Positions 596 through 63,111 are shown, numbered from the stretch's first letter. The stretch is 64,000 bases of DNA from an uncultured Pseudomonadota bacterium (GCA_949283535.1 CASDTC010000007.1:18746-82745), one strand, 5' to 3'. Numbers and translations: made by a program. The notes: generated by a model from the letters alone, not told the origin.

Positions 596-1623
596 TTTTC
601 TAGTCCCAAGTGTTTATACCCCGCATCTGTAATAACGCGCCCCCGTGGCGTGCGCTGAACAAACCCCAATTGCATTAAATATGGTTCGATTACATCTTCG
701 ATTGTATCTGCCGGTTCGGATAACGCCGCCGCCAAATTTTCGATTCCAACCGGGCCACCGGCATAGTGCCGAACAATTGCATTCATATATTCACGATCTA
801 TTTCATCCAAGCCACTTTCATCAATATGCAATTGAAACAATGTCGTCTTTATCGTATCTGATGAAATTTCATTCCGTCCCAACGCGGTTGCAAAATCCCG
901 CGCCCGTTTTAACAAACGATTTGCGATACGCGGCGTGCCACGCGCACTGCGTGCCAACATTTTCGCGCCATCGACATCAATTGGCATTCCCAATATATTC
1001 GCACTGCGCATAATAATTTTTGCCAAATCATCCGTTGAATAAAACGACAGTCGCAAATCAATTCCAAACCGATCCCGCAATGGATTTGACAACAAACCTG
1101 TACGCGTTGTTGCCCCAACCAGCGTAAACGGGGGCAGGTCAATTCGCACACTTTTTGCCGATGGACCTTCGCCCAGCATAATATCTAACTTAAAATCTTC
1201 CATTGCGGAATACAGAACTTCTTCGATTGCGGTTGGCAAACGATGAATTTCATCAATAAATAAAACATCCATCGGTTCCAGCGATGTTAATATCGCCGCC
1301 AAATCACCTTGCTTGGTCAGCATCGGTGCCGCCGTTGCACGAAAATTTGTTCCCAATTCATTTGCAACAATATGCGCCAATGTTGTTTTTCCCAATCCCG
1401 GGGGACCATATAACAAAACATGATCCATTGCCTCGCCACGCGATTTTGCCCCCGATATGAATACAGACAAATTCTGCTTTAACGCGTCATGCCCAATAAA
1501 ATCCGCCAATGCGCGCGGGCGAATTGATGCCGCCATTTCATCTGGGATATTTGGATCTAAAAATCTGTCTTTGTTTTGCATGTTATTATAACAACTTGTT
1601 ATCTGCATTTTCACGACCGACAT
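592..1623 (-). CDS. ruvB: Holliday junction branch migration helicase RuvB
   Basis: Walker [15 protein letters not shown], Walker [10 protein letters not shown], sensor and arginine-finger region, and a C-terminal winged helix. The true start may be an internal Met (1608 or 1581), because the long form overlaps the upstream gene. Confidence 0.95.
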
Positions 1624-2245
1624 ATGCCTTTAAGTCATTATACATCTGGCGTAAATCTGCCGGTTGACTGTAATGTGAATCTGCATTTTTAACACGAATT
1701 GTTTCCAAATCAATCTGGGCCTGTTTTTTCAAAACCTGGGTCAGATGTGTTGCAAATGCCTTGGATTCATCAGATTCCGCTGCGCCCTGTAATAACAATC
1801 CACGGTTTGGTCGCGGTGATAAAAATGCAAAATCTGCAACCGATGGATCAGGTGAAACCAACGCGAATCCTGAAACCTCTGGGCGGCGCATCATTGCCTG
1901 TAATACATACCATGCGCCCAATTGATTCCCCGCCAGCCATATTTTATCACTATCTTCATTTCTATTTTGAATCCAGTCAATTACTGTTGCGATATCCAAC
2001 ATATTTTCAGCTGTTGTACCGATTGCCCCCTCAGAATAATTTACACCACGATAATTAAAGCGCACAACAGAAAACCCGATATCCATAAATGCACGAAACA
2101 TTGCATATGACACGCGGTCATTCATATGATACTTTTGCCGTGGATTTCCAGACAATATAACCGCCAATGGTGCGGATGCAGTATCAGATTTATGATAAAC
2201 CGCATGTAATTTTCCCGCTTCTCCTGAAATCATTATATCAACCAT
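1586..2245 (-). CDS. alpha/beta-fold hydrolase (COG2945-like)
   Basis: 219 aa with a pattern typical of small alpha/beta hydrolases: [11 protein letters not shown]... then a nucleophile-elbow-like LAGNQLGAW. Family-level call only. Confidence 0.6.
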
Positions 2246-2390
2246 TATAATCGCCTTTCCATTTTTAATAAAATTCTTTTTCGAATTACTTATAGAACAA
2301 ACATGATATAATTTTCAATAAAAATTTTTGCTTTGACATAATATCCCGTAATGTTCTAAGATTTATCACATATAATCAAGGGCGAAAATC

Positions 2391-3314
2391 ATGGCAAGAT
2401 TTATTTTAATGACTGCTGTTGCTGGATTAATTGCATTTAATGCGGTTGCTGCAACCGAAGAAGTCGTATATGACAACTTTCAAACAATATATACTGAAAC
2501 ACCGGTTCAGTCATATTATGCATATCCAGATGATCCAAATTTTATCCCAGAAACCGAATTTATGAACCGTGCCGACAGTCTGGATTACGATTTAAATATC
2601 GAAGAAGCGCGTCAAATTGAATCTATGATGTATCCAGGCGTAATGTTTGCAAACAAGCCAATGATAATATGCCGCAATTTCGGTTGCACCAGATTAAACG
2701 ACAGAATAACGCGTACATTTTTGTTTAACAGTCTGGCAAATATGTTCATGATGAATGAATATTCACGCGTTTATATTTGCGAGGCTGACCCATTTTCGCG
2801 CGATTGCCTGCAATCTGGAATATCATTCCCTGTACGCAGTGGCATTGCAAATGCGCTGGTGAAAATACCCAAGGCCACAATTTCCCAGGTTACAATTTCA
2901 ACGGGTCTGTCGCGTGCCACAGTTGGTATGACATATGAATTCTTGGTAAACGGCATCGCCCGAACATGCGAACCAACAATTATGGATATTGTAATACCTG
3001 TGAATTCCCAGGCAACATTATCTAACCGTGAATTTACATGTAATATGACCAGTGACGGTTTAAGCAATGTTTCATTACTGGTAAATATTGATTATATCGA
3101 CCTGGACTATGGTATCCTGGGCGGATATTATTCTGTTGGGATGCAGGGACCAACAACTGGCGGCGGCACTGGGTACGCATTGTTTAAAACAGAATTCACC
3201 ACTGGGGGCATGCAATTCCGTGCGGCGACATTAGATGAAACTGATATGATGGGCGCAAATTCAATGATGACAATTCAGCCTGGCGAATACGCGGTAGAGC
3301 CACTAAAAAAATAA
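2391..3314 (+). CDS. secreted hypothetical protein (signal peptide, several Cys)
   Basis: 307 aa. N-terminal signal MARFILMTAVAGLIAFNAVAATEE. A TTGACA...TAAGAT-like promoter lies upstream and the hairpin terminator at 3318-3340 lies downstream. No family recognised. Confidence 0.6.
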   Translation: MARFILMTAVAGLIAFNAVAATEEVVYDNFQTIYTETPVQSYYAYPDDPNFIPETEFMNRADSLDYDLNIEEARQIESMMYPGVMFANKPMIICRNFGCTRLNDRITRTFLFNSLANMFMMNEYSRVYICEADPFSRDCLQSGISFPVRSGIANALVKIPKATISQVTISTGLSRATVGMTYEFLVNGIARTCEPTIMDIVIPVNSQATLSNREFTCNMTSDGLSNVSLLVNIDYIDLDYGILGGYYSVGMQGPTTGGGTGYALFKTEFTTGGMQFRAATLDETDMMGANSMMTIQPGEYAVEPLKK

Positions 3315-3351
3315 CCACCGCGCCCATGGCGCGGATTTTTGTATTAAAAAT

Positions 3352-4017
3352 ATGAACAAGACAATTTTAATTATTGACGATGATGATATGTTGCGCACGA
3401 CACTGGCACGTGGATTGCGAAATGATGGATTTTATGCTGTAACCGCTGAATCCGCCGAACATGCATCTGAAATACTATCCAGAATATCTGTTGACGCAAT
3501 TGTACTGGACAGAATGATGGGCGGAATGGACGGATTGGCATTTTTAAAACAACTGCGTACAAAAGGCGTTTCAACCCCTGTAATAATGTTAACCGCGATG
3601 ACCGGACCAGAAAATGCAATTGATGGTCTGGCGGGTGGGGCAAATGACTATCTGGCAAAACCGTTCCAACTGCGCGAATTAATATTACGATTAAACAATA
3701 TAATCGGAAATAAAAACAACACAGAATTTAAAATGCCAAACGGATTAATGTTCACAGATGATGAATTTTTTATAACAACCGGCAAAACACCAAAAATATT
3801 GGGATTGTCTGGCGAAGAAAAAAAATTATTACAGCGTCTGACCATGCCAATCGGCAATATCGCCCCGGCATCCCCAATGGTTGCAAAACGCTTGCGCAGT
3901 AAAATAAATAGTGTATTATCAAACATAGATATTATAACTGTTCGTGGTCGTGGATATAAATTAATACAGATTGATTCCGCCACGCCCAGTACAAATACAA
4001 ATGGTGATAAAGAATGA
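3352..4017 (+). CDS. OmpR/PhoB-family response regulator
   Basis: Receiver domain (ILIIDDDD..., D at VLDRMMGGMDG, LTAM, KPF). The C-terminal winged helix ends in TVRGRGYKL. Overlaps the kinase gene by 4 nt. Confidence 0.85.
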   Translation: MNKTILIIDDDDMLRTTLARGLRNDGFYAVTAESAEHASEILSRISVDAIVLDRMMGGMDGLAFLKQLRTKGVSTPVIMLTAMTGPENAIDGLAGGANDYLAKPFQLRELILRLNNIIGNKNNTEFKMPNGLMFTDDEFFITTGKTPKILGLSGEEKKLLQRLTMPIGNIAPASPMVAKRLRSKINSVLSNIDIITVRGRGYKLIQIDSATPSTNTNGDKE

Positions 4018-5294
4018 GATTAATACCACGCAGCTTTTTATGGCGAACAATATTAATGATTTTAATACCATTAATTATCGCCCAGGTAATTATTGCGAAT
4101 GTATTTTTTGGCAATCACTGGTCACGCGTACACGCAACATTGGCACGCAGTCTGGCTGTTGAAATCAGTACCATGATGAATTTCATGGACGAAGGTGAAA
4201 CCACAACTGCGCGTACAATGGCGCGCGACATGGGGATAAACATATCAGTAAACCCAAAGTTAAATCGCCCCAGCAAAAATGATAACGATTCCCGCGAAGC
4301 AGGGTTATTGGCGACCGAATTGTCAAACCGTCTGAAACGATCTGCACAAATATATATTGATAAAGGCAAACGTCTGGTATTCATTGATGTTCCAACAAAC
4401 GACGGTCAAATTGCGACATTTGGCACATCATTGTATCGCATATATTCAACCAGTACCGAAGTGTTTATAATCTGGTTAATTGGGTCAATTTTAATTGTAT
4501 CCATATTGATTTCGCCGTTCATCATAATGCACACGCGCAGCATCCGCCGCATTGCCAAGGCAGCGGGGCGTTTTGGGCGCGGACTGGACGCACCAGGGTT
4601 CCAACCAACCGGTTCCAAAGAAATCCGTGAAGCGGCATCTGCAATGATCACAATGAAAGAACGACTGAACAGATATAACCGTACACGCACAGATATGTTA
4701 AATGCGGTCAGTCATGACTTAAAAGCGCCACTGACCCGCATGCGGTTGGCGGTTGAAACAGATGCTGCATCTAAAGCAGATTTGTTGCGCGACATTGACC
4801 GCATGACAGAAATGGTCAATGGATACCTGGCATTCGCGCGTGGCGAAATGCCGGAAATTGAACAAGCAACTGAATTACCCGCAATGTTATTACGCATTGC
4901 GCGCGACGCGGCACCAGATAAAAATATCGAAACTGATTTTCCAAATGAACCGGCACAGTTTTATGCCCGCCCAATGGCATTGGCACGCGCATTCGGTAAT
5001 ATAATTGAAAATGCCGCCCGTTATGCAAAAAAGACAATACGCATTACTGAACACGATTCCCCCACCCAAGTAGAAATCATTATCGAAGACGATGGTCCCG
5101 GTATCCCAGACGATAAAAAACGCGATGCATTGCGTCCATTTGTGCGCCTGGATGACGCACGCAGTGATAAGACTGGCGGCACTGGGCTGGGACTGTCAAT
5201 TGCACAAACCGCAATTGAAAATCATGGCGGGCAAATGTTCTTGGAAAACAGCGAACTGGGCGGATTACGCGTCAGAATAGTTTTACCAATATAA
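4014..5294 (+). CDS. EnvZ-like sensor histidine kinase
   Basis: Two TM segments flank a periplasmic loop. H-box SHDLKAPLTRMRL, N-box NIIENAARYA, G-boxes DDGPGIP and GGTGLGLSIA. Confidence 0.85.
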   Translation: MRLIPRSFLWRTILMILIPLIIAQVIIANVFFGNHWSRVHATLARSLAVEISTMMNFMDEGETTTARTMARDMGINISVNPKLNRPSKNDNDSREAGLLATELSNRLKRSAQIYIDKGKRLVFIDVPTNDGQIATFGTSLYRIYSTSTEVFIIWLIGSILIVSILISPFIIMHTRSIRRIAKAAGRFGRGLDAPGFQPTGSKEIREAASAMITMKERLNRYNRTRTDMLNAVSHDLKAPLTRMRLAVETDAASKADLLRDIDRMTEMVNGYLAFARGEMPEIEQATELPAMLLRIARDAAPDKNIETDFPNEPAQFYARPMALARAFGNIIENAARYAKKTIRITEHDSPTQVEIIIEDDGPGIPDDKKRDALRPFVRLDDARSDKTGGTGLGLSIAQTAIENHGGQMFLENSELGGLRVRIVLPI

Positions 5295-57536: not shown

Positions 57537-60473
57537 TTATATCAATGTGCCTTGTGCACGGGTGCGTGTTAGTTTGCTGTGCGACAATATGTCCTGAATG
57601 TTGGCATTTTGGTCACGCAAGGCATAAAAATTACTGCCAGTCAATAACACATACGACCATTCACAGCCCATGCGTTCTGATTCAGGCAATTCGTTTATCT
57701 TGGCCACCCAGTCAACCGCACTGGTTTCTTTACTACACACATCGGCCGTTTTTGCCCTGTCATCACCTTTGGTTTCTACAACATACATTTTATTGCCGAT
57801 TTTTACCATAAAGTCCGGATGATAGGTTCCCAACATGCCGTCCTGGCGTAAATAACGCAGGTGTGCAAACGTATGCTTGTGCTCATCAATTTTTATCAGA
57901 CGTTCAACGGCACTGTCCGCATCGCAATATTCCAGAAAATCTTTTTCCAGTTTTGTTGTTGACGGATAGAATGTTTTTTCATAAATCGACTTTTTTATGT
58001 CCAATGCAAAATTTTCACGCCCAAACATTGTATCAACTTGCGAAAACCAATGTTTTTCCACAACTGCCTCGGCCACATCGATTCTGGTGTGCATTTCATA
58101 AACCGCCTTGGACAGTTCTGTCAGGGTATGTTGCAATATTTGCCCGTTTGATAATATCAGCACACGCCAATTCCCGTCCACTAATGGGTCAAATTCCTGG
58201 CCGAACAGACGAGTCCGGATATACTTATCGATGGTTCGCATTAACAACGCCTGGTCAATCTGCATCAATGGCAGTTCAGCTTTATGCCCCTTGCTGCTCA
58301 TCTTGGCCATATTCACAATAATTGTGTTCAGCATTTTTTGCAGATATTCATTGTATGACTTTGCGTTAAATATATCGCCACGCACCCTGTATTCACCAAA
58401 GCGGGTTTTGACCTGCATTTCAACCCCAACGAAACGTTCATCATTGTCATTTGGCACCAATTTTTTCAAATCGTCCAGTCTTGCCCCGTCCCATTGGTTC
58501 ATGCTTTCAACAGATATAACATCGCCCGACATAGTTTCTTCTTTGTCTTTTACAATGCGTGGCCAAAACAAATTCAATTCTGCAAAGTTCGGTTTCAAAC
58601 CAACGGAAATCATATCACCCAACGCCTTGCCTTTGCCACCAGGACGGGTTGCAGGTTCTTCAACCAACAAACTTTTGTCCAGGTCATCATAGAACTTTTC
58701 AAACGCCGGATGTTCAATAACAAACAAAGTATCCAGATAATTAACCGGCTGTTGTTTCAGGTCGTATATGTTATGTCTGTTTTCTGCCTTGCTGTCTTGG
58801 AATTCGGGTTCACGCCACATTAAACGCAATCCACGTCCCAAAACCTGTTCCAGCAATATTGGTGCCTCGGATGAACGCAGGGGCACAATAACGCAAATAC
58901 TGTTCACGTCAAACCCCTCACGCAACATCATAACACTGACAACAACCTTGGGTTTGTCAGACTTGTCCATGTTAAATAACTGCTGTTTTGTTTGTTCCCA
59001 TTCTTCTGGTGGGATTTCACCTTTACGGTTAGAGTCAATACGCATAATATCGTCTTCGGCCAATCCCTCGGACCGCAGAAAGTCCACTACAAACGGCGAC
59101 ACATCTGTATCTTCGCAGACAACCAACATTTTAGGCGATTTTTTGGCGTTAAGTTTTTCAAAATCTTCACGCAATATATTCAAACGTGACAGCCCCGCAC
59201 GCAACATTAAACGTTGGCCCTCGGACAGACCGATTACTTGTTTGCCCTCACGCACGGCCTTGAATTCAATTTCTGCATTAGACAAGGCCCCCAATTCCTT
59301 ACGCTTGTCCAGAATAAAGGTCTTAACAAACCCGGCTTTCATCGCAGTTGCCAATTCAAAGTTGGTCACAATGTGCGGGAAAAAGTGTTTGGTTCTGTTC
59401 TTGCCACCACCCGTCACAATATACGGGGTCGCAGAAAAGTCGATTTGAATAAAACTGTTGCCCTTGGGTTCAGCAATAGTATTCAATGCACGTTGCCATT
59501 CAACCTCAGCCACGATGCCGTTCGATTTACTTTCGTGGATATGATGTGCTTCATCATTAAATACACACAAGTCTGGCAAACCTGCCAGATATTCAATTAC
59601 CCCACCACGCAGGTATTTTGCATCCAGCGCATCCAATGCATTACCACTGGCAACACCCGGTGTCACAGGCAGGATTTCAGATGCCATATTTTGTGTGTCC
59701 CCAAAGTCAAAACCCATAATTTGGGTTTCTGATTCACCATCCGGCGTATCTTCATTCAATTTATGCCAATTCGTTATCGCAATTATGCCACCGCCAGTTG
59801 TTTTGTTGCCGATTTCCTTTTTATCAGCCACCGCATTCTGAATAAATGAAAATACATCCTGGCGGTATTTTTCAGGCACAAACAATTCCTGGTTGCTTTT
59901 CAGGTCAGATGTTTCAAAATCACGCCGTCCAAGGGCAATTTCTTTACCACGAAACGCATCTAACAGACGTTCATATACAATCAGTCCCGGCGCAATTAAC
60001 AAAAAGTTTTTGGTATATTTTACACCATTACTAGTTTGATATTTAGCATTCAAATACTGCCATATTAACAATGCGTTCAGCACCCACGTTTTACCCGTGC
60101 CAGTTGCCATTTTAACACAATATTTTGGATAGCGATATTTGTCAGCGGTTATAACATCTGTAAAATTCTGGTCAACATAAGACGTGTCCGTCACATTGGA
60201 GAGATGTGCGTACATATCAACCACAGAATTGGACTTTAACACTTCATGCACATATATTGTGTTCAAAATCGCCTGACGTTGGCCATCATGGAAATTACGG
60301 TCACGCACATCACAAAACGATGGGTCGAACCAATAACGCAACAGGTCGGCTGTTATCGGTGATACAGCGTCCAAGAAACGCCCGTTTTCCCATTCGACAT
60401 TAACCAGTTCAGTTAACCCCTTGGCGAATTTTAATGGAATATCACGTGTTCCAGAATTTGTTGGTGATGACAT
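57537..60473 (-). CDS. res: Type III restriction enzyme, Res subunit
   Basis: Helicase motif I (MATGTGKTWV), motif II (FNDEAHHI), later SF2 motifs, and a C-terminal PD-(D/E)xK-like nuclease motif (HPDFMV...VVETKGDD); 978 aa. Confidence 0.9.
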   Translation of the reverse strand: MSSPTNSGTRDIPLKFAKGLTELVNVEWENGRFLDAVSPITADLLRYWFDPSFCDVRDRNFHDGQRQAILNTIYVHEVLKSNSVVDMYAHLSNVTDTSYVDQNFTDVITADKYRYPKYCVKMATGTGKTWVLNALLIWQYLNAKYQTSNGVKYTKNFLLIAPGLIVYERLLDAFRGKEIALGRRDFETSDLKSNQELFVPEKYRQDVFSFIQNAVADKKEIGNKTTGGGIIAITNWHKLNEDTPDGESETQIMGFDFGDTQNMASEILPVTPGVASGNALDALDAKYLRGGVIEYLAGLPDLCVFNDEAHHIHESKSNGIVAEVEWQRALNTIAEPKGNSFIQIDFSATPYIVTGGGKNRTKHFFPHIVTNFELATAMKAGFVKTFILDKRKELGALSNAEIEFKAVREGKQVIGLSEGQRLMLRAGLSRLNILREDFEKLNAKKSPKMLVVCEDTDVSPFVVDFLRSEGLAEDDIMRIDSNRKGEIPPEEWEQTKQQLFNMDKSDKPKVVVSVMMLREGFDVNSICVIVPLRSSEAPILLEQVLGRGLRLMWREPEFQDSKAENRHNIYDLKQQPVNYLDTLFVIEHPAFEKFYDDLDKSLLVEEPATRPGGKGKALGDMISVGLKPNFAELNLFWPRIVKDKEETMSGDVISVESMNQWDGARLDDLKKLVPNDNDERFVGVEMQVKTRFGEYRVRGDIFNAKSYNEYLQKMLNTIIVNMAKMSSKGHKAELPLMQIDQALLMRTIDKYIRTRLFGQEFDPLVDGNWRVLILSNGQILQHTLTELSKAVYEMHTRIDVAEAVVEKHWFSQVDTMFGRENFALDIKKSIYEKTFYPSTTKLEKDFLEYCDADSAVERLIKIDEHKHTFAHLRYLRQDGMLGTYHPDFMVKIGNKMYVVETKGDDRAKTADVCSKETSAVDWVAKINELPESERMGCEWSYVLLTGSNFYALRDQNANIQDILSHSKLTRTRAQGTLI

Positions 60474-60847
60474 TATGCTACCCCTTTATTAAAAAGTTTT
60501 ATAATTACGTCTGCCAAACTTATCCACGCTGCAACCGCTACTGGCACCGTAAAAACAATCACATAAGCGACCTTTGCTATTATAGATTTGCGAAAATACC
60601 ATTTGCCTTTTGATGTGATTTTTATGTTCGTGAATGACTTACCGTTTGAAAACGTCTTTTCATCACACGAAATGAGTCCACGCCTTAACAGCTCTTCTAA
60701 ATGCGCCCGCATTTCACACAACACCTTTTGTGCCCATTCTTTTTGAATGTTATTACGCCTAACACCGTCACGCCCGCATATTTCAATATCGTTTGTGTCT
60801 GGCATGTCTTTAATATACTGTAAGATTTCACGTTGTTTAGATTGCAA
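60473..60847 (-). CDS. small winged-helix (LexA-N-like) protein with a C-terminal TM anchor, wedged between mod and res
   Basis: TTG at 60847 lies 6 nt after a GGAGG SD that sits in the last codons of mod. The stop overlaps the res ATG (TAATG). The 124-aa product starts (M/L)QSKQREILQYIKDMPD..., continues EMRAHLEELLRRGLISCDEK, and ends in the TM helix VAYVIVFTVPVAVAAWISLADVII. The tracked ORF extends into mod in another frame. Confidence 0.6.
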   Translation of the reverse strand: MQSKQREILQYIKDMPDTNDIEICGRDGVRRNNIQKEWAQKVLCEMRAHLEELLRRGLISCDEKTFSNGKSFTNIKITSKGKWYFRKSIIAKVAYVIVFTVPVAVAAWISLADVIIKLFNKGVA

Positions 60848-60848
60848 T

Positions 60849-62834
60849 TTACACCTCCTCAACAACCATTGATTCAAACCCAAATACGTCCACCGCCTTG
60901 ACACAAATCTTGCGTTTGCCTGGGTGCGCTGGGGTGATAATTTCGGCATTGTGCACCACACGAACGGCGTCGCCGTCATTTGCGGTGTTTTCACGATAAT
61001 CCTGCCATACAGAACGGAATGTCTGCCCGTCATAGCCCGGGTCAATCGACCAATATTCAATCAAATCCAATGGGCGTTCTGCCATGACCTGTTGAACCTT
61101 TGCCTTGGCTTTATCGTCCAATGGCAAACTGTCCGGTGATAACAGCACATAGTTATCCAATTCAACGGTTATCTTAACCTTGCCGTCTTCATTGGCCGGC
61201 ACAACCAATGGCCGCTTAATGGTTAAATATTGCAGGGACGAGAATGTTATTTTCCCGCTGTTAACCAGGTCTGCATACCCCTTTTTACGCAACATATCCA
61301 ACAAATCTGGTGGAATAACCAGGACTTCGCATTCTGATTTATTCAACCCCTGGATAGTGGCACCAATATCAAATGCAAAATTCCAGCCCAAAACAACAAC
61401 CTTGTTCCAACCGCCCATATATGATTCACGCAGTTCCAGCGCACGTTTAACCGTGTTTGCATTGGTCACCTTGTTCGGACTGTCCACATATACCAGGGTG
61501 CTGCTATTGCGAATGTGTCCCAGGTTGGATGGCGCATCCGCCACATCAAACGGTAATGCGCCATACAACCCCATAACAACACGTGCCAGGTCGGACACAC
61601 GGCGGAATTGTTTGTCGGACAGGAATGCCTCACGCGAATAATCACCAATACTGTGATACAAGAATGGCTTGCAATCCGGAATATCAATCAGACGTTTACG
61701 CATAATCATACATGACGGCTTGCCCAGGTCAGATGTTATCCAACGCCGTCCCAACTTTTCGGCAACCGCTGCGGTCGTTCCAGACCCACCAAAGAAATCC
61801 GCTACAATAGAATTTTCATTGGACGACGCTTTGATTATCCGTTCCAATAACGCCTCTGGTTTTTGTGTTGCATAATCAACACGCTCTTTCCCTTTATTAA
61901 GGAAAGGAATGTCACACCACCAATCATCGCATGGTGAGCCATTAAAAACATCCAAAAATATTGTGTCATCACTAGCGTTGCCTCGCATCGCCAATCTTTT
62001 ATATGCACCAGGACAGTTTTCTTTCATGTATCCATAAGTTATAACACCGTTATCATCAAAATGTCGTCCCCAAACATCTAGTGTGCTTTTTGCCAAAGGA
62101 GTGCCCTGTGGATTAAATATATGTTTGTTTGCTTTACTGTAAAATAGCAATATGTCATGTTTCCTTTTATAATGGTCAGTCCCGACCGCAGGGCTTTTGT
62201 ATCCCCACACAATTTCATTTTGGAAATTGTTTTTCCCAAATATATCATCCATTATAACTTTCAGATAATGCCCTGCATGCCAGTCGCAATGAACATAAAT
62301 TGACCCCTGGTCGGATAACAATTCTTTCATCAACGCCAAACGTGGATACAACATTTTCAGATACGATATTGTGCCGTCTGACCATGTATCCGAATAAGCA
62401 AACTGTTCCAACACGGTTGGTTTTTGTTCAATATCGCCATTCGGCAGCTTTATTTTTGTTCTATAATCTGCCTTACTATCGAATGGAGGGTCAATGTATA
62501 TCAGGTCTATTTTACCACGCATACTGGGCAGCCCAGTTGCCGGGTCACCGGTCAATAATGCCTGCATCGCAAACAGGTTGTCACCGTTTATCAATCGGTT
62601 AAACCAACCGTCTGTTTCGCAATATTCTGCACTGGTGTTATCGGGTGGGCAACATGCCCGAATTGTGCCACGGAACAAACCGCTTTCATCACGGGCGGGC
62701 AGAACATATTCATTTGTTTGCAACATCATTTTATTGTCAGATTGTGCACGTGCCAAAATCTGTTCAACCTCACGTCGCCCCTGTTTTACTACGTCTGGCA
62801 ATGCCTCTATCAGCGATTTCATGTTCCACCCCAT
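60849..62834 (-). CDS. mod: Type III DNA N6-adenine (or N4-cytosine) methyltransferase, Mod subunit
   Basis: Beta-class motif order: catalytic IYIDPPFDS first, SAM-binding [14 protein letters not shown] later, with a variable region between them; 661 aa. Confidence 0.9.
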
Positions 62835-62840
62835 TGTGTA

Positions 62841-62869
62841 AAAATTAAACCGCCAATGGAATGGCGGTC
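62841..62869 (-). promoter_or_regulatory. terminator-like hairpin in the mod leader
   Basis: Minus strand GACCGCC-ATTCCATT-GGCGGTTTAATTTTT, ending ~7 nt before the GGGGTGG SD and mod ATG. A TTGTCC-17-TGATAA promoter candidate lies ~40 nt further upstream. Confidence 0.4.
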
Positions 62870-63111
62870 AGGGTGTTTGCAGTCGCTTTATCATTGACCC
62901 CGCGCTTTTAGGACAAGCCCTATTGTATGGCAAACGGCACCCCAACCATAGTTGGGGATGATAACGATGCAAAAAGCATCGAAAATACATCAGAAACGAT
63001 GCTTTCGCATCGGATAAAGCGGGCTTGCAACGGCCCTGAACCCATTTCCACTGGATTCAAGTTTCAGTTTAACATACTTTTTCGCAAAAAACAATTTCAA
63101 TGTAAAATCCC

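Follow-up and report, generated by a model that had tools for sequence, protein, structure and literature searches.

Between the methyltransferase and restriction genes of an R-M (restriction-modification) operon of Type III from an uncultured Pseudomonadota bacterium there is a small third gene, here termed X, and this gene is best explained as an accessory defence cassette that is embedded in the operon and acts at the membrane, a reading to which the analysis as a whole gives a probability of about 0.5. The operon is at positions 57,537 to 62,834 of a 64,000-nucleotide stretch of DNA (GCA_949283535.1 CASDTC010000007.1:18746-82745), referred to below as the window; related loci are designated L001 and so on. 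Enzymes of Type III are regarded as having two genes and no more, res coming immediately behind mod, whereas here a 375-nucleotide gene intervenes. Comparison of related loci shows X to be cargo rather than a core subunit, being optional, precisely exchangeable, strictly linked to this Type III family and dispensable for operon integrity, and shows the mod/res junction of this Type III clade to be a general cargo hotspot for defence-type and selfish genes.

The operon is entirely on the minus strand in the order mod, X and res, both in the list of open reading frames (ORFs) and on direct reading of the sequence (Table 1). A single nucleotide separates the mod stop codon from the TTG with which X begins, the stop codon of X and the res ATG (60473-60471) have one A in common to give TAATG (60475-60471), and the ribosome-binding sites of both X and res are within the preceding gene. 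The original prediction, made from the sequence of the window, had an extra 124-codon ORF between mod and res, a TTG 6 nucleotides after a GGAGG in the last mod codons, a stop codon overlapping the res start as TAATG and tight coupling of X to both neighbors, and all of this is borne out, coordinates included. The gaggagg-N6-start geometry at the beginning of X recurs in L001 and L006, with a related version in L003, and the 3′ end of mod (..GAGGAGGT..) is a ready-made ribosome-binding site for any ORF that follows it. On the best reading of this arrangement the three genes are transcribed together, and translation of X is coupled to that of mod and to that of res. A longer, 195-amino-acid version of X in the mechanical ORF list, with a TTG at 61060, was rejected as it overlaps mod and as homologues begin right after the mod stop; the start is settled, and the extension dismissed, by L003, L013 and L094, in which the codon homologous to the TTG is an ATG that comes straight after the mod stop or overlaps it.

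Table 1. Features of the mod-X-res operon, by position in the window, and genes at the mod/res junction of related loci
Feature	Position or locus	Strand	Details
mod	60849-62834	-	661 amino acids; Type III beta-class N6-adenine DNA methyltransferase; C-terminal end ...GAGGAGGTGTAA
Alternative mod start	62822	-	In-frame second ATG, GGGGTGG before it
Variable target-recognition region of mod	61876-62204	-	blastn against L001 and L006-L008 breaks between about 62205 and 61875
Gene X	60473-60847	-	124 codons, 124 amino acids; TTG start 60847-60845, stop TAA 60475-60473
Ribosome-binding site of X	60854-60858	-	GGAGG within final mod codons, exactly 6 nucleotides upstream of TTG
X residues 1-81	60605-60847	-	Basic winged-helix domain (H1, H2, long H3, beta-hairpin wing); AlphaFold2, Foldseek
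X residues 93-116	60500-60571	-	Conserved hydrophobic segment VAYVIVFTVPVAVAAWISLADVII; probable tail anchor
Ribosome-binding site of res	60481-60486	-	AAGGGG within final X codons, 7 nucleotides upstream of res ATG
res	57537-60473	-	978 amino acids; Type III restriction subunit, SF2 helicase-like ATPase with C-terminal PD-(D/E)xK nuclease
Perfect 10-base-pair hairpin downstream of res	57274-57297	.	AAAGCCGTGG-ATAA-CCACGGCTTT; terminator scan
Structured conserved element, putative leader or small RNA	62848-63060	-	~210 nucleotides; terminator-like hairpin 62869-62848 (GACCGCCATTCCATTGGCGGTT and T-run) about 13 nucleotides before mod ATG
SLFN_AlbA_2 and HATPase_c_4 proteins at junction	L016, L023, L027, L040		
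DUF3800 protein at junction	L033		Matches PADLOC candidate PDC-M04A, 3.4e-32
HNH protein at junction	L073		
DUF4177 protein at junction	L070		
YoeB and HigB/HigA toxin-antitoxin pairs at junction	L053, L090, L092		Reverse-oriented
Small membrane protein at junction	L035		149 amino acids; phage family phrog_7512, 4.7e-11
Small membrane protein at junction	L039		195 amino acids
Membrane proteins at junction with 4-5 helices	L031, L044		38% identical to each other

The enzymes on either side of X look intact, as had been claimed for them. Mod matches Pfam N6_N4_Mtase (PF01555; 9.4e-43) and PADLOC MTase_III (2.9e-81), and in its translation DPPF precedes FGGSGT, which is the beta-class motif order. 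Res matches Pfam ResIII (4.8e-13), Helicase_C weakly and PADLOC REase_III (8.2e-25), while its score with Pfam RE_endonuc, 21.1 bits, is slightly under the 23.4 cut-off; KMATGTGKT, FNDEAHH, QVLGRGLR and PDF...VVETKG are visible in its translation, with motifs of superfamily 2 (SF2) and of a PD-ExK-like nuclease. A beta-class methyltransferase and an SF2 ATPase with a nuclease are thus both present as in Type III systems, and the departure from the two-gene layout is an insertion and not another kind of system. Type III systems are further characterised by ATP-dependent cleavage for which two unmethylated sites in inverse orientation are required. The Res family is very large, with 6544 homologues at 43-68% identity in many phyla. 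The middle of mod cannot be aligned with that of sister operons that are otherwise 86-95% identical. An exchange of target-recognition domains would be expected to leave just such a mark, and it would give differing methylation specificities to operons with the same Res and X.

With X alone as the query, a search of 5.8 billion proteins yielded close relatives only, in 9 clusters with identities of 64-99% and with called lengths that are nearly all 118-124 amino acids, and a profile that includes the X-like protein of L013 adds 3 clusters at 30-34% identity, for 12 clusters in total. The L013 protein, 33% identical to X with a pairwise E of 6e-17 and an hhalign probability of 97.8%, is a true homologue. 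A profile search of 1.84 billion representatives yielded 2 proteins and missed the existing L013-type relatives, so the family may be somewhat larger than is apparent. The related sequences compared are from metagenomes, and the hosts of the X-bearing operons are gut Alphaproteobacteria, Candidatus Enterousia and uncultured. Every visible context of X or its distant relatives is mod-X-res (the window, L001-L008, L013 and L094), and the layout is kept down to 31% X identity. The ratio of nonsynonymous to synonymous substitution rates (dN/dS, pairwise Nei-Gojobori) is 0.16-0.31 for X where dS is unsaturated, as against 0.03-0.07 for res and 0.10-0.22 for mod, from which X is under purifying selection, though its rate of evolution is about five times that of Res. 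The possibilities that the ORF had been mis-called or that the assembly was at fault were considered and rejected in view of this coding signature and of the presence of X in more than 10 independent assemblies, three species representatives among metagenome-assembled genomes included. Lack of conservation in homologous operons and a dN/dS near 1 had been named beforehand as what would count against X; the opposite was found on each score, and on these comparisons X is a real gene, the notion that it is not one being effectively excluded.

The sole name attached to X in any source is 'hypothetical protein' (MBO5834033.1). No viral homologues were found, and NCBIfam, PHROGs and a PDB sequence search gave no match, the best PDB E being 0.16 or worse. 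The search of PADLOC that had been proposed in order to place X yielded no defence family: its sole match is a weak one to CARF3--CARF_TM (E 7.9e-4, 17 bits) across the winged-helix part, and X matches none of the candidate models of PADLOC 2.0.

The distance from the end of mod to the start of res was measured in loci fetched by Res similarity alone, without regard to X. Within this Res clade the best 80 of more than 555 metagenomic hits were taken, and the census is of 84 junctions, 74 of them metagenomic and 10 on viral contigs. The gap is -21 to +36 nucleotides in 67 of the 84 (about 80%), and an insert is present in the other 17. In L009, whose Res is 68% identical to that of the window, res follows straight after mod without X, while in L010 and L011 (Res 65%) an unrelated 205-amino-acid protein with an N-terminal hydrophobic helix is at the position of X. 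The identical Res protein, P0030, is encoded both in L012, which has no X-like gene, and in L013, which has one; these two loci differ there by a clean indel, with flanks 95-99% identical on both sides and with mod and res intact. Relatives without the gene (L009, L012), the occurrence of one and the same Res whether or not an X-like gene is there, and the clean indel together demonstrate that X is inserted, and the prediction of an insertion into a two-gene operon holds.

The inserts are diverse (Table 1). Proteins with SLFN_AlbA_2 and HATPase_c_4 domains are the commonest large cargo and occur singly except in L016, where two are in tandem at 1456-4501 (558 and 402 amino acids). In a cultured relative, Rhizorhabdus wittichii plasmid pDC06 (L095; CP021187.1 12925-23822), an IS1380 transposase gene and a haloacid dehalogenase gene are between mod and res, and transposons therefore also use the same junction. 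As the junction is a general cargo slot, X is one cassette among many and not a unique three-gene design.

That insertion sequence (IS) elements and toxin-antitoxin pairs occupy the same slot is also what would be expected if X were a selfish or neutral passenger, or had an unrelated host function, and were kept as the junction tolerates inserts and supplies expression signals. The ribosome-binding site built into the mod 3′ end is usable by any inserted ORF, and X is rare, with just 12 clusters in the 5.8 billion proteins. Purifying selection over a long divergence, to 31% identity with the layout kept, argues against such a passenger, however, and precise two-sided coupling in two lineages suggests selection for co-expression; this explanation is improbable.

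Tight coupling on both sides, with a start -1 to +5 nucleotides from the mod stop and an end 2 nucleotides or fewer from the res start or overlapping it, is found for X and for the cargo of L010, L035, L039 and L031/L044, and all five of these families are predicted membrane proteins (helices in cargo proteins were called with a Kyte-Doolittle window). Kinship with X was rejected for the others, as BLASTP found no similarity, no pairwise E among the membrane cargo proteins being below 0.1 except for the X/X and L031/L044 pairs. The polytopic cargo of L031 (3860-4498) and L044 (3845-4498) ends in a small Lys-rich domain, e.g. GKIIKLGNDFISFF..., that by its pattern looks like a small beta-barrel, possibly nucleic-acid-binding, which would parallel the layout of X as an anchor plus a binder.

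Several unrelated small membrane proteins at the same coupled position could be a case of convergent anchoring, and this bears on the alternative that X is an optional third subunit of the enzyme, tethering Mod2Res, or DNA as it comes in, to the inner membrane where the DNA enters. Its two-sided coupling implies that X is made together with Mod and Res, and its two lineages are confined to operons of this Type III family. Enzymes of Type III cut poorly if the DNA has a free end, off which they slide, and bulky end caps restore cleavage (PMC3413136), so a DNA-binding protein fixed to the membrane where DNA comes in could be of help; in one version X may act as a protein cap or roadblock that keeps sliding Type III enzymes on injected linear DNA. 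Such a targeting role is nevertheless unlikely for X. The identical Res is in operons with and without it, some 80% of related operons have no third gene, and the soluble domains of the membrane cargo proteins are dissimilar, so that each would need its own docking mode. A wider proposition, itself rather unlikely, is that a subset of Type III enzymes is three-component and membrane-coupled, with unrelated small membrane proteins (X with its winged helix, others with N-terminal anchors or 4-5 helices) translationally coupled between Mod and Res. These would either keep the enzyme, or the end of the DNA coming in, where entry takes place, capping the free end by which sliding Type III enzymes otherwise escape, or trigger a membrane-based abortive response when restriction is blocked.

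For the fold of X, AlphaFold2 with a 12-sequence alignment spanning both clades gave a model with a predicted local distance difference test (pLDDT) score of 77, a shallow alignment having given an uninformative 50. In this model a winged helix is followed after the wing by one continuous helix, residues 79-121. Almost all of the top 50 Foldseek matches in the PDB are MarR or winged helix-turn-helix (HTH) proteins at probability 0.9-1.0, with E 4e-3 or worse and TM-scores of 0.4-0.5, the leading ones being MarR, PcaV, FabT and MepR (0.97-1.0), and a search of BFVD likewise gave a generic winged-helix fold of MarR/PadR type and nothing more specific. The sole Pfam match, HTH_34 at 19 bits, is under its 27-bit cut-off. 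High probability together with weak E-values and such TM-scores supports the fold class and not MarR family membership: of the LexA-N or MarR-type winged helix originally proposed, the core fold stands while membership by sequence does not. The N-domain, up to the hydrophobic segment, has an isoelectric point (pI) of 9.6 and a net charge of +7, with pI 9.1-9.6 and +4 to +7 across homologues.

The segment near the C-terminus has a Kyte-Doolittle value of 2.26 in the window protein and 1.6-2.3 across homologues. Five Lys or Arg residues are in the 15 residues that precede it and two come after (4-5 before and 2 after across homologues), and from this bias the N-terminus with its winged helix is predicted to be cytoplasmic and the tail to be anchored; membrane insertion of the tail is predicted and probable. 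Y95, I97, F99, P102, V103, A104 and W108 are invariant across both clades, in a tail pattern F-T/S-x-PVA-x-A/G-A/G-W, and between the clades the hydrophobic helix, at 43% identity, is the best conserved part along with the wing at 52%, the recognition helix H3 being the worst at 19%. Good conservation with invariant residues makes the tail more than a greasy anchor.

The strong divergence of the recognition helix is what would be expected under co-evolution with operators, and together with the winged-helix fold and its basic surface it recommends the idea, put forward with the original prediction, that X is a controller resembling the C proteins, one that delays or tunes expression of res or of the operon on entry into a new host. 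Its gene is just upstream of, and overlaps, the nuclease gene, as in the C-R arrangement of Type II systems in which the controller gene comes just before that for the nuclease. Yet the fold is not of the XRE type as in known C proteins, with no HTH_3/XRE match, and the hydrophobic tail is better conserved than the helix that would read an operator. Promoter-like sites number 19 against a shuffled expectation of 16 +/- 3.7, none being prominent before X, and no operator-like inverted repeat was found near X or near the start of mod, keeping in mind that short, degenerate operators could escape. Lineages that carry X do not share related sequence upstream of mod, and membrane proteins without a DNA-binding part fill the same slot. 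The controller role is weakened by all this and is very improbable. Of the four roles that the prediction listed without choosing, the candidates left are a tether, a sensor that links restriction to envelope or phage-injection events and an abortive-infection add-on.

If X is instead a defence cassette, the following may be envisaged. A protein of ~14 kDa would have its basic MarR-like winged helix toward the cytoplasm, with the conserved C-terminal helix most likely serving as an inner-membrane anchor for a dimeric or oligomeric form. What the winged helix would engage, on the inner side of that membrane, is either nucleic acid or the complex of Mod and Res, and the restriction system would so gain a second, membrane-level layer of defence. 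X might then block or abort infection like AbiP or superinfection-exclusion proteins, or it might be a PrrC-like back-up that is released once restriction is inhibited, a guard of that kind being a latent effector which the R-M complex silences by binding it and which anti-restriction activates. Membrane insertion, nucleic-acid binding and any defence phenotype are what we infer for X in this scheme. Within the defence-cassette reading, dependence on Mod and Res, as for a PrrC-like guard, and independence of them, as for Abi or exclusion proteins, are about equally probable: exclusive linkage to the operon and two-sided coupling favor the former, while the latter is favored by the fact that Res is identical whether X is there or not and by the base rate among embedded systems.

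Several points weigh against X being a defence cassette at the membrane. By PADLOC, PHROGs and NCBIfam it has no homology to known defence, toxin, holin or exclusion proteins. It is never seen outside mod-X-res, though free-standing occurrence might be expected of a defence gene, and as the slot also has IS elements and toxin-antitoxin pairs, embedding there is no proof of a defence role. With Res identical whether or not X is present, no co-adaptation of Res is needed, which weakens the PrrC-like, Res-dependent version. On the Hessa scale the hydrophobic segment is marginal, at +1.1 kcal/mol in the window protein and +0.3 to +3.5 across homologues, because of its invariant central proline, so that of the transmembrane helix first proposed, what is upheld is a conserved hydrophobic C-terminal helix that passes by Kyte-Doolittle and is only marginal by Hessa. 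That helix could instead serve as a protein-protein interface.

The surroundings of the operon have features of their own. The transcription unit is likely to end at the hairpin downstream of res. L001 and L006-L008 are homologous to the window as far as 57289-57303, and since homology with the sister operons ends at this hairpin the downstream flank varies between genomes. Some 3 kb beyond res is a tRNA-Arg(tct) gene (54364-54440), and close to it a short ORF (55626-55877) with a weak resolvase-type HTH_7 match; the region beyond res may be the remains of an integration event. In two of the related loci a HigB-like toxin gene is a few kb upstream of mod-X-res (L001 998-1279; L002 971-1252), which hints at a small defence or mobile neighborhood around the operon.

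The element upstream of mod is common to L001 and L006-L008, with a diverged form in L094 that has compensatory changes. RNAalifold predicts 59 pairs in it, 11 of them with compensatory changes, and Rfam has no family for it. It could serve the R-M operon as a leader of attenuator type, or else be a small RNA in its own right. No simple-sequence repeats hinting at phase variation were found. L012 and L013, which are otherwise 94-99% identical contigs, have in opposite orientations a 142-base-pair segment directly upstream of mod (L012 2822-2963, L013 720-861) that is adjoined by a PF00239 resolvase/invertase gene, and the inversion looks like an invertible-promoter, and so phase-variable, switch of that Type III operon.

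A literature search, most subscription journals being outside its coverage, found no description of genes embedded in Type III operons and no winged-helix membrane protein within any R-M operon; the remark made with the prediction, that no membrane-tethered DNA-binding protein in an R-M operon was known, agrees with this. What is new here is Type III as the host system, a defined mod/res slot, a new protein family and tightly coupled small membrane cargo. X is a specific lead that is cheap to test, a good candidate for a new anti-phage function with no demonstrated mechanism, and the slot yields a concrete set of candidate anti-phage genes. It also raises the question of whether the membrane is, for some restriction enzymes, a place of work or a route for signals. 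Were X only a passenger, the mod/res slot would still be of use for discovering new defence genes.

Genes embedded in R-M loci are a known kind, the rlo genes being another example. With respect to the individual parts of X, the N-domain (residues 1-78) has the same winged-helix fold as the MarR and PadR regulators by Foldseek, though the model is without the N- and C-terminal dimerisation helices of MarR (the alpha1/alpha5/alpha6 interface) and has a membrane-type helix instead. Like the C proteins of Type II systems X is small, of DNA-binding type and encoded directly upstream of a nuclease gene, which it overlaps as their genes often do. Those are soluble XRE-type HTH dimers of about 80 amino acids with palindromic C-box operators and a promoter of their own upstream, whereas X combines a winged helix of MarR-like type with a conserved hydrophobic tail, and no operator was detected for it. 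The lactococcal abortive infection proteins AbiP and AbiC are, like X, small single-gene products with a membrane anchor and a domain of nucleic-acid-binding type, and AbiP is a membrane-anchored nucleic-acid binder in which both features are required for the phenotype (PMC13064643). The likeness of X to these is in logic only, as AbiP is anchored N-terminally, is larger, binds RNA and single-stranded DNA and is encoded outside R-M operons; no homology between it and X was detected, though no comparison aimed at it was made.

With respect to the position of the gene, the nearest parallel in kind is with PrrC, which is inside the Type IC EcoprrI hsd locus and acts as a back-up when restriction is inhibited (PMC12707154). 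X is likewise an extra, co-expressed gene within an R-M operon, placed between modification or specificity genes and the gene for restriction. PrrC, however, is a soluble, ABC-ATPase-like tRNA nuclease of a Type I system with no sequence similarity to X, in which no NTPase or anticodon-nuclease domain is found in the libraries scanned (Pfam, PADLOC and NCBIfam). TgvAB is also embedded in a Type I locus, that of V. cholerae (PMC11411939). More generally, where Type I, BREX, DISARM and Hma systems have genes embedded in them, these often serve in defence (Payne et al. 2024 preprint, 10.1101/2024.01.29.577857), and that 'guilt-by-embedding' survey covered Hma, BREX, DISARM and Type I R-M systems and not Type III (10.1101/2024.01.29.577857). 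As in those systems, unrelated cargo is here nested in a conserved defence operon, and the slot even includes their candidate PDC-M04A; whereas their cargo is merely nested, translational coupling ties X and the other small membrane cargo to the genes on both sides.

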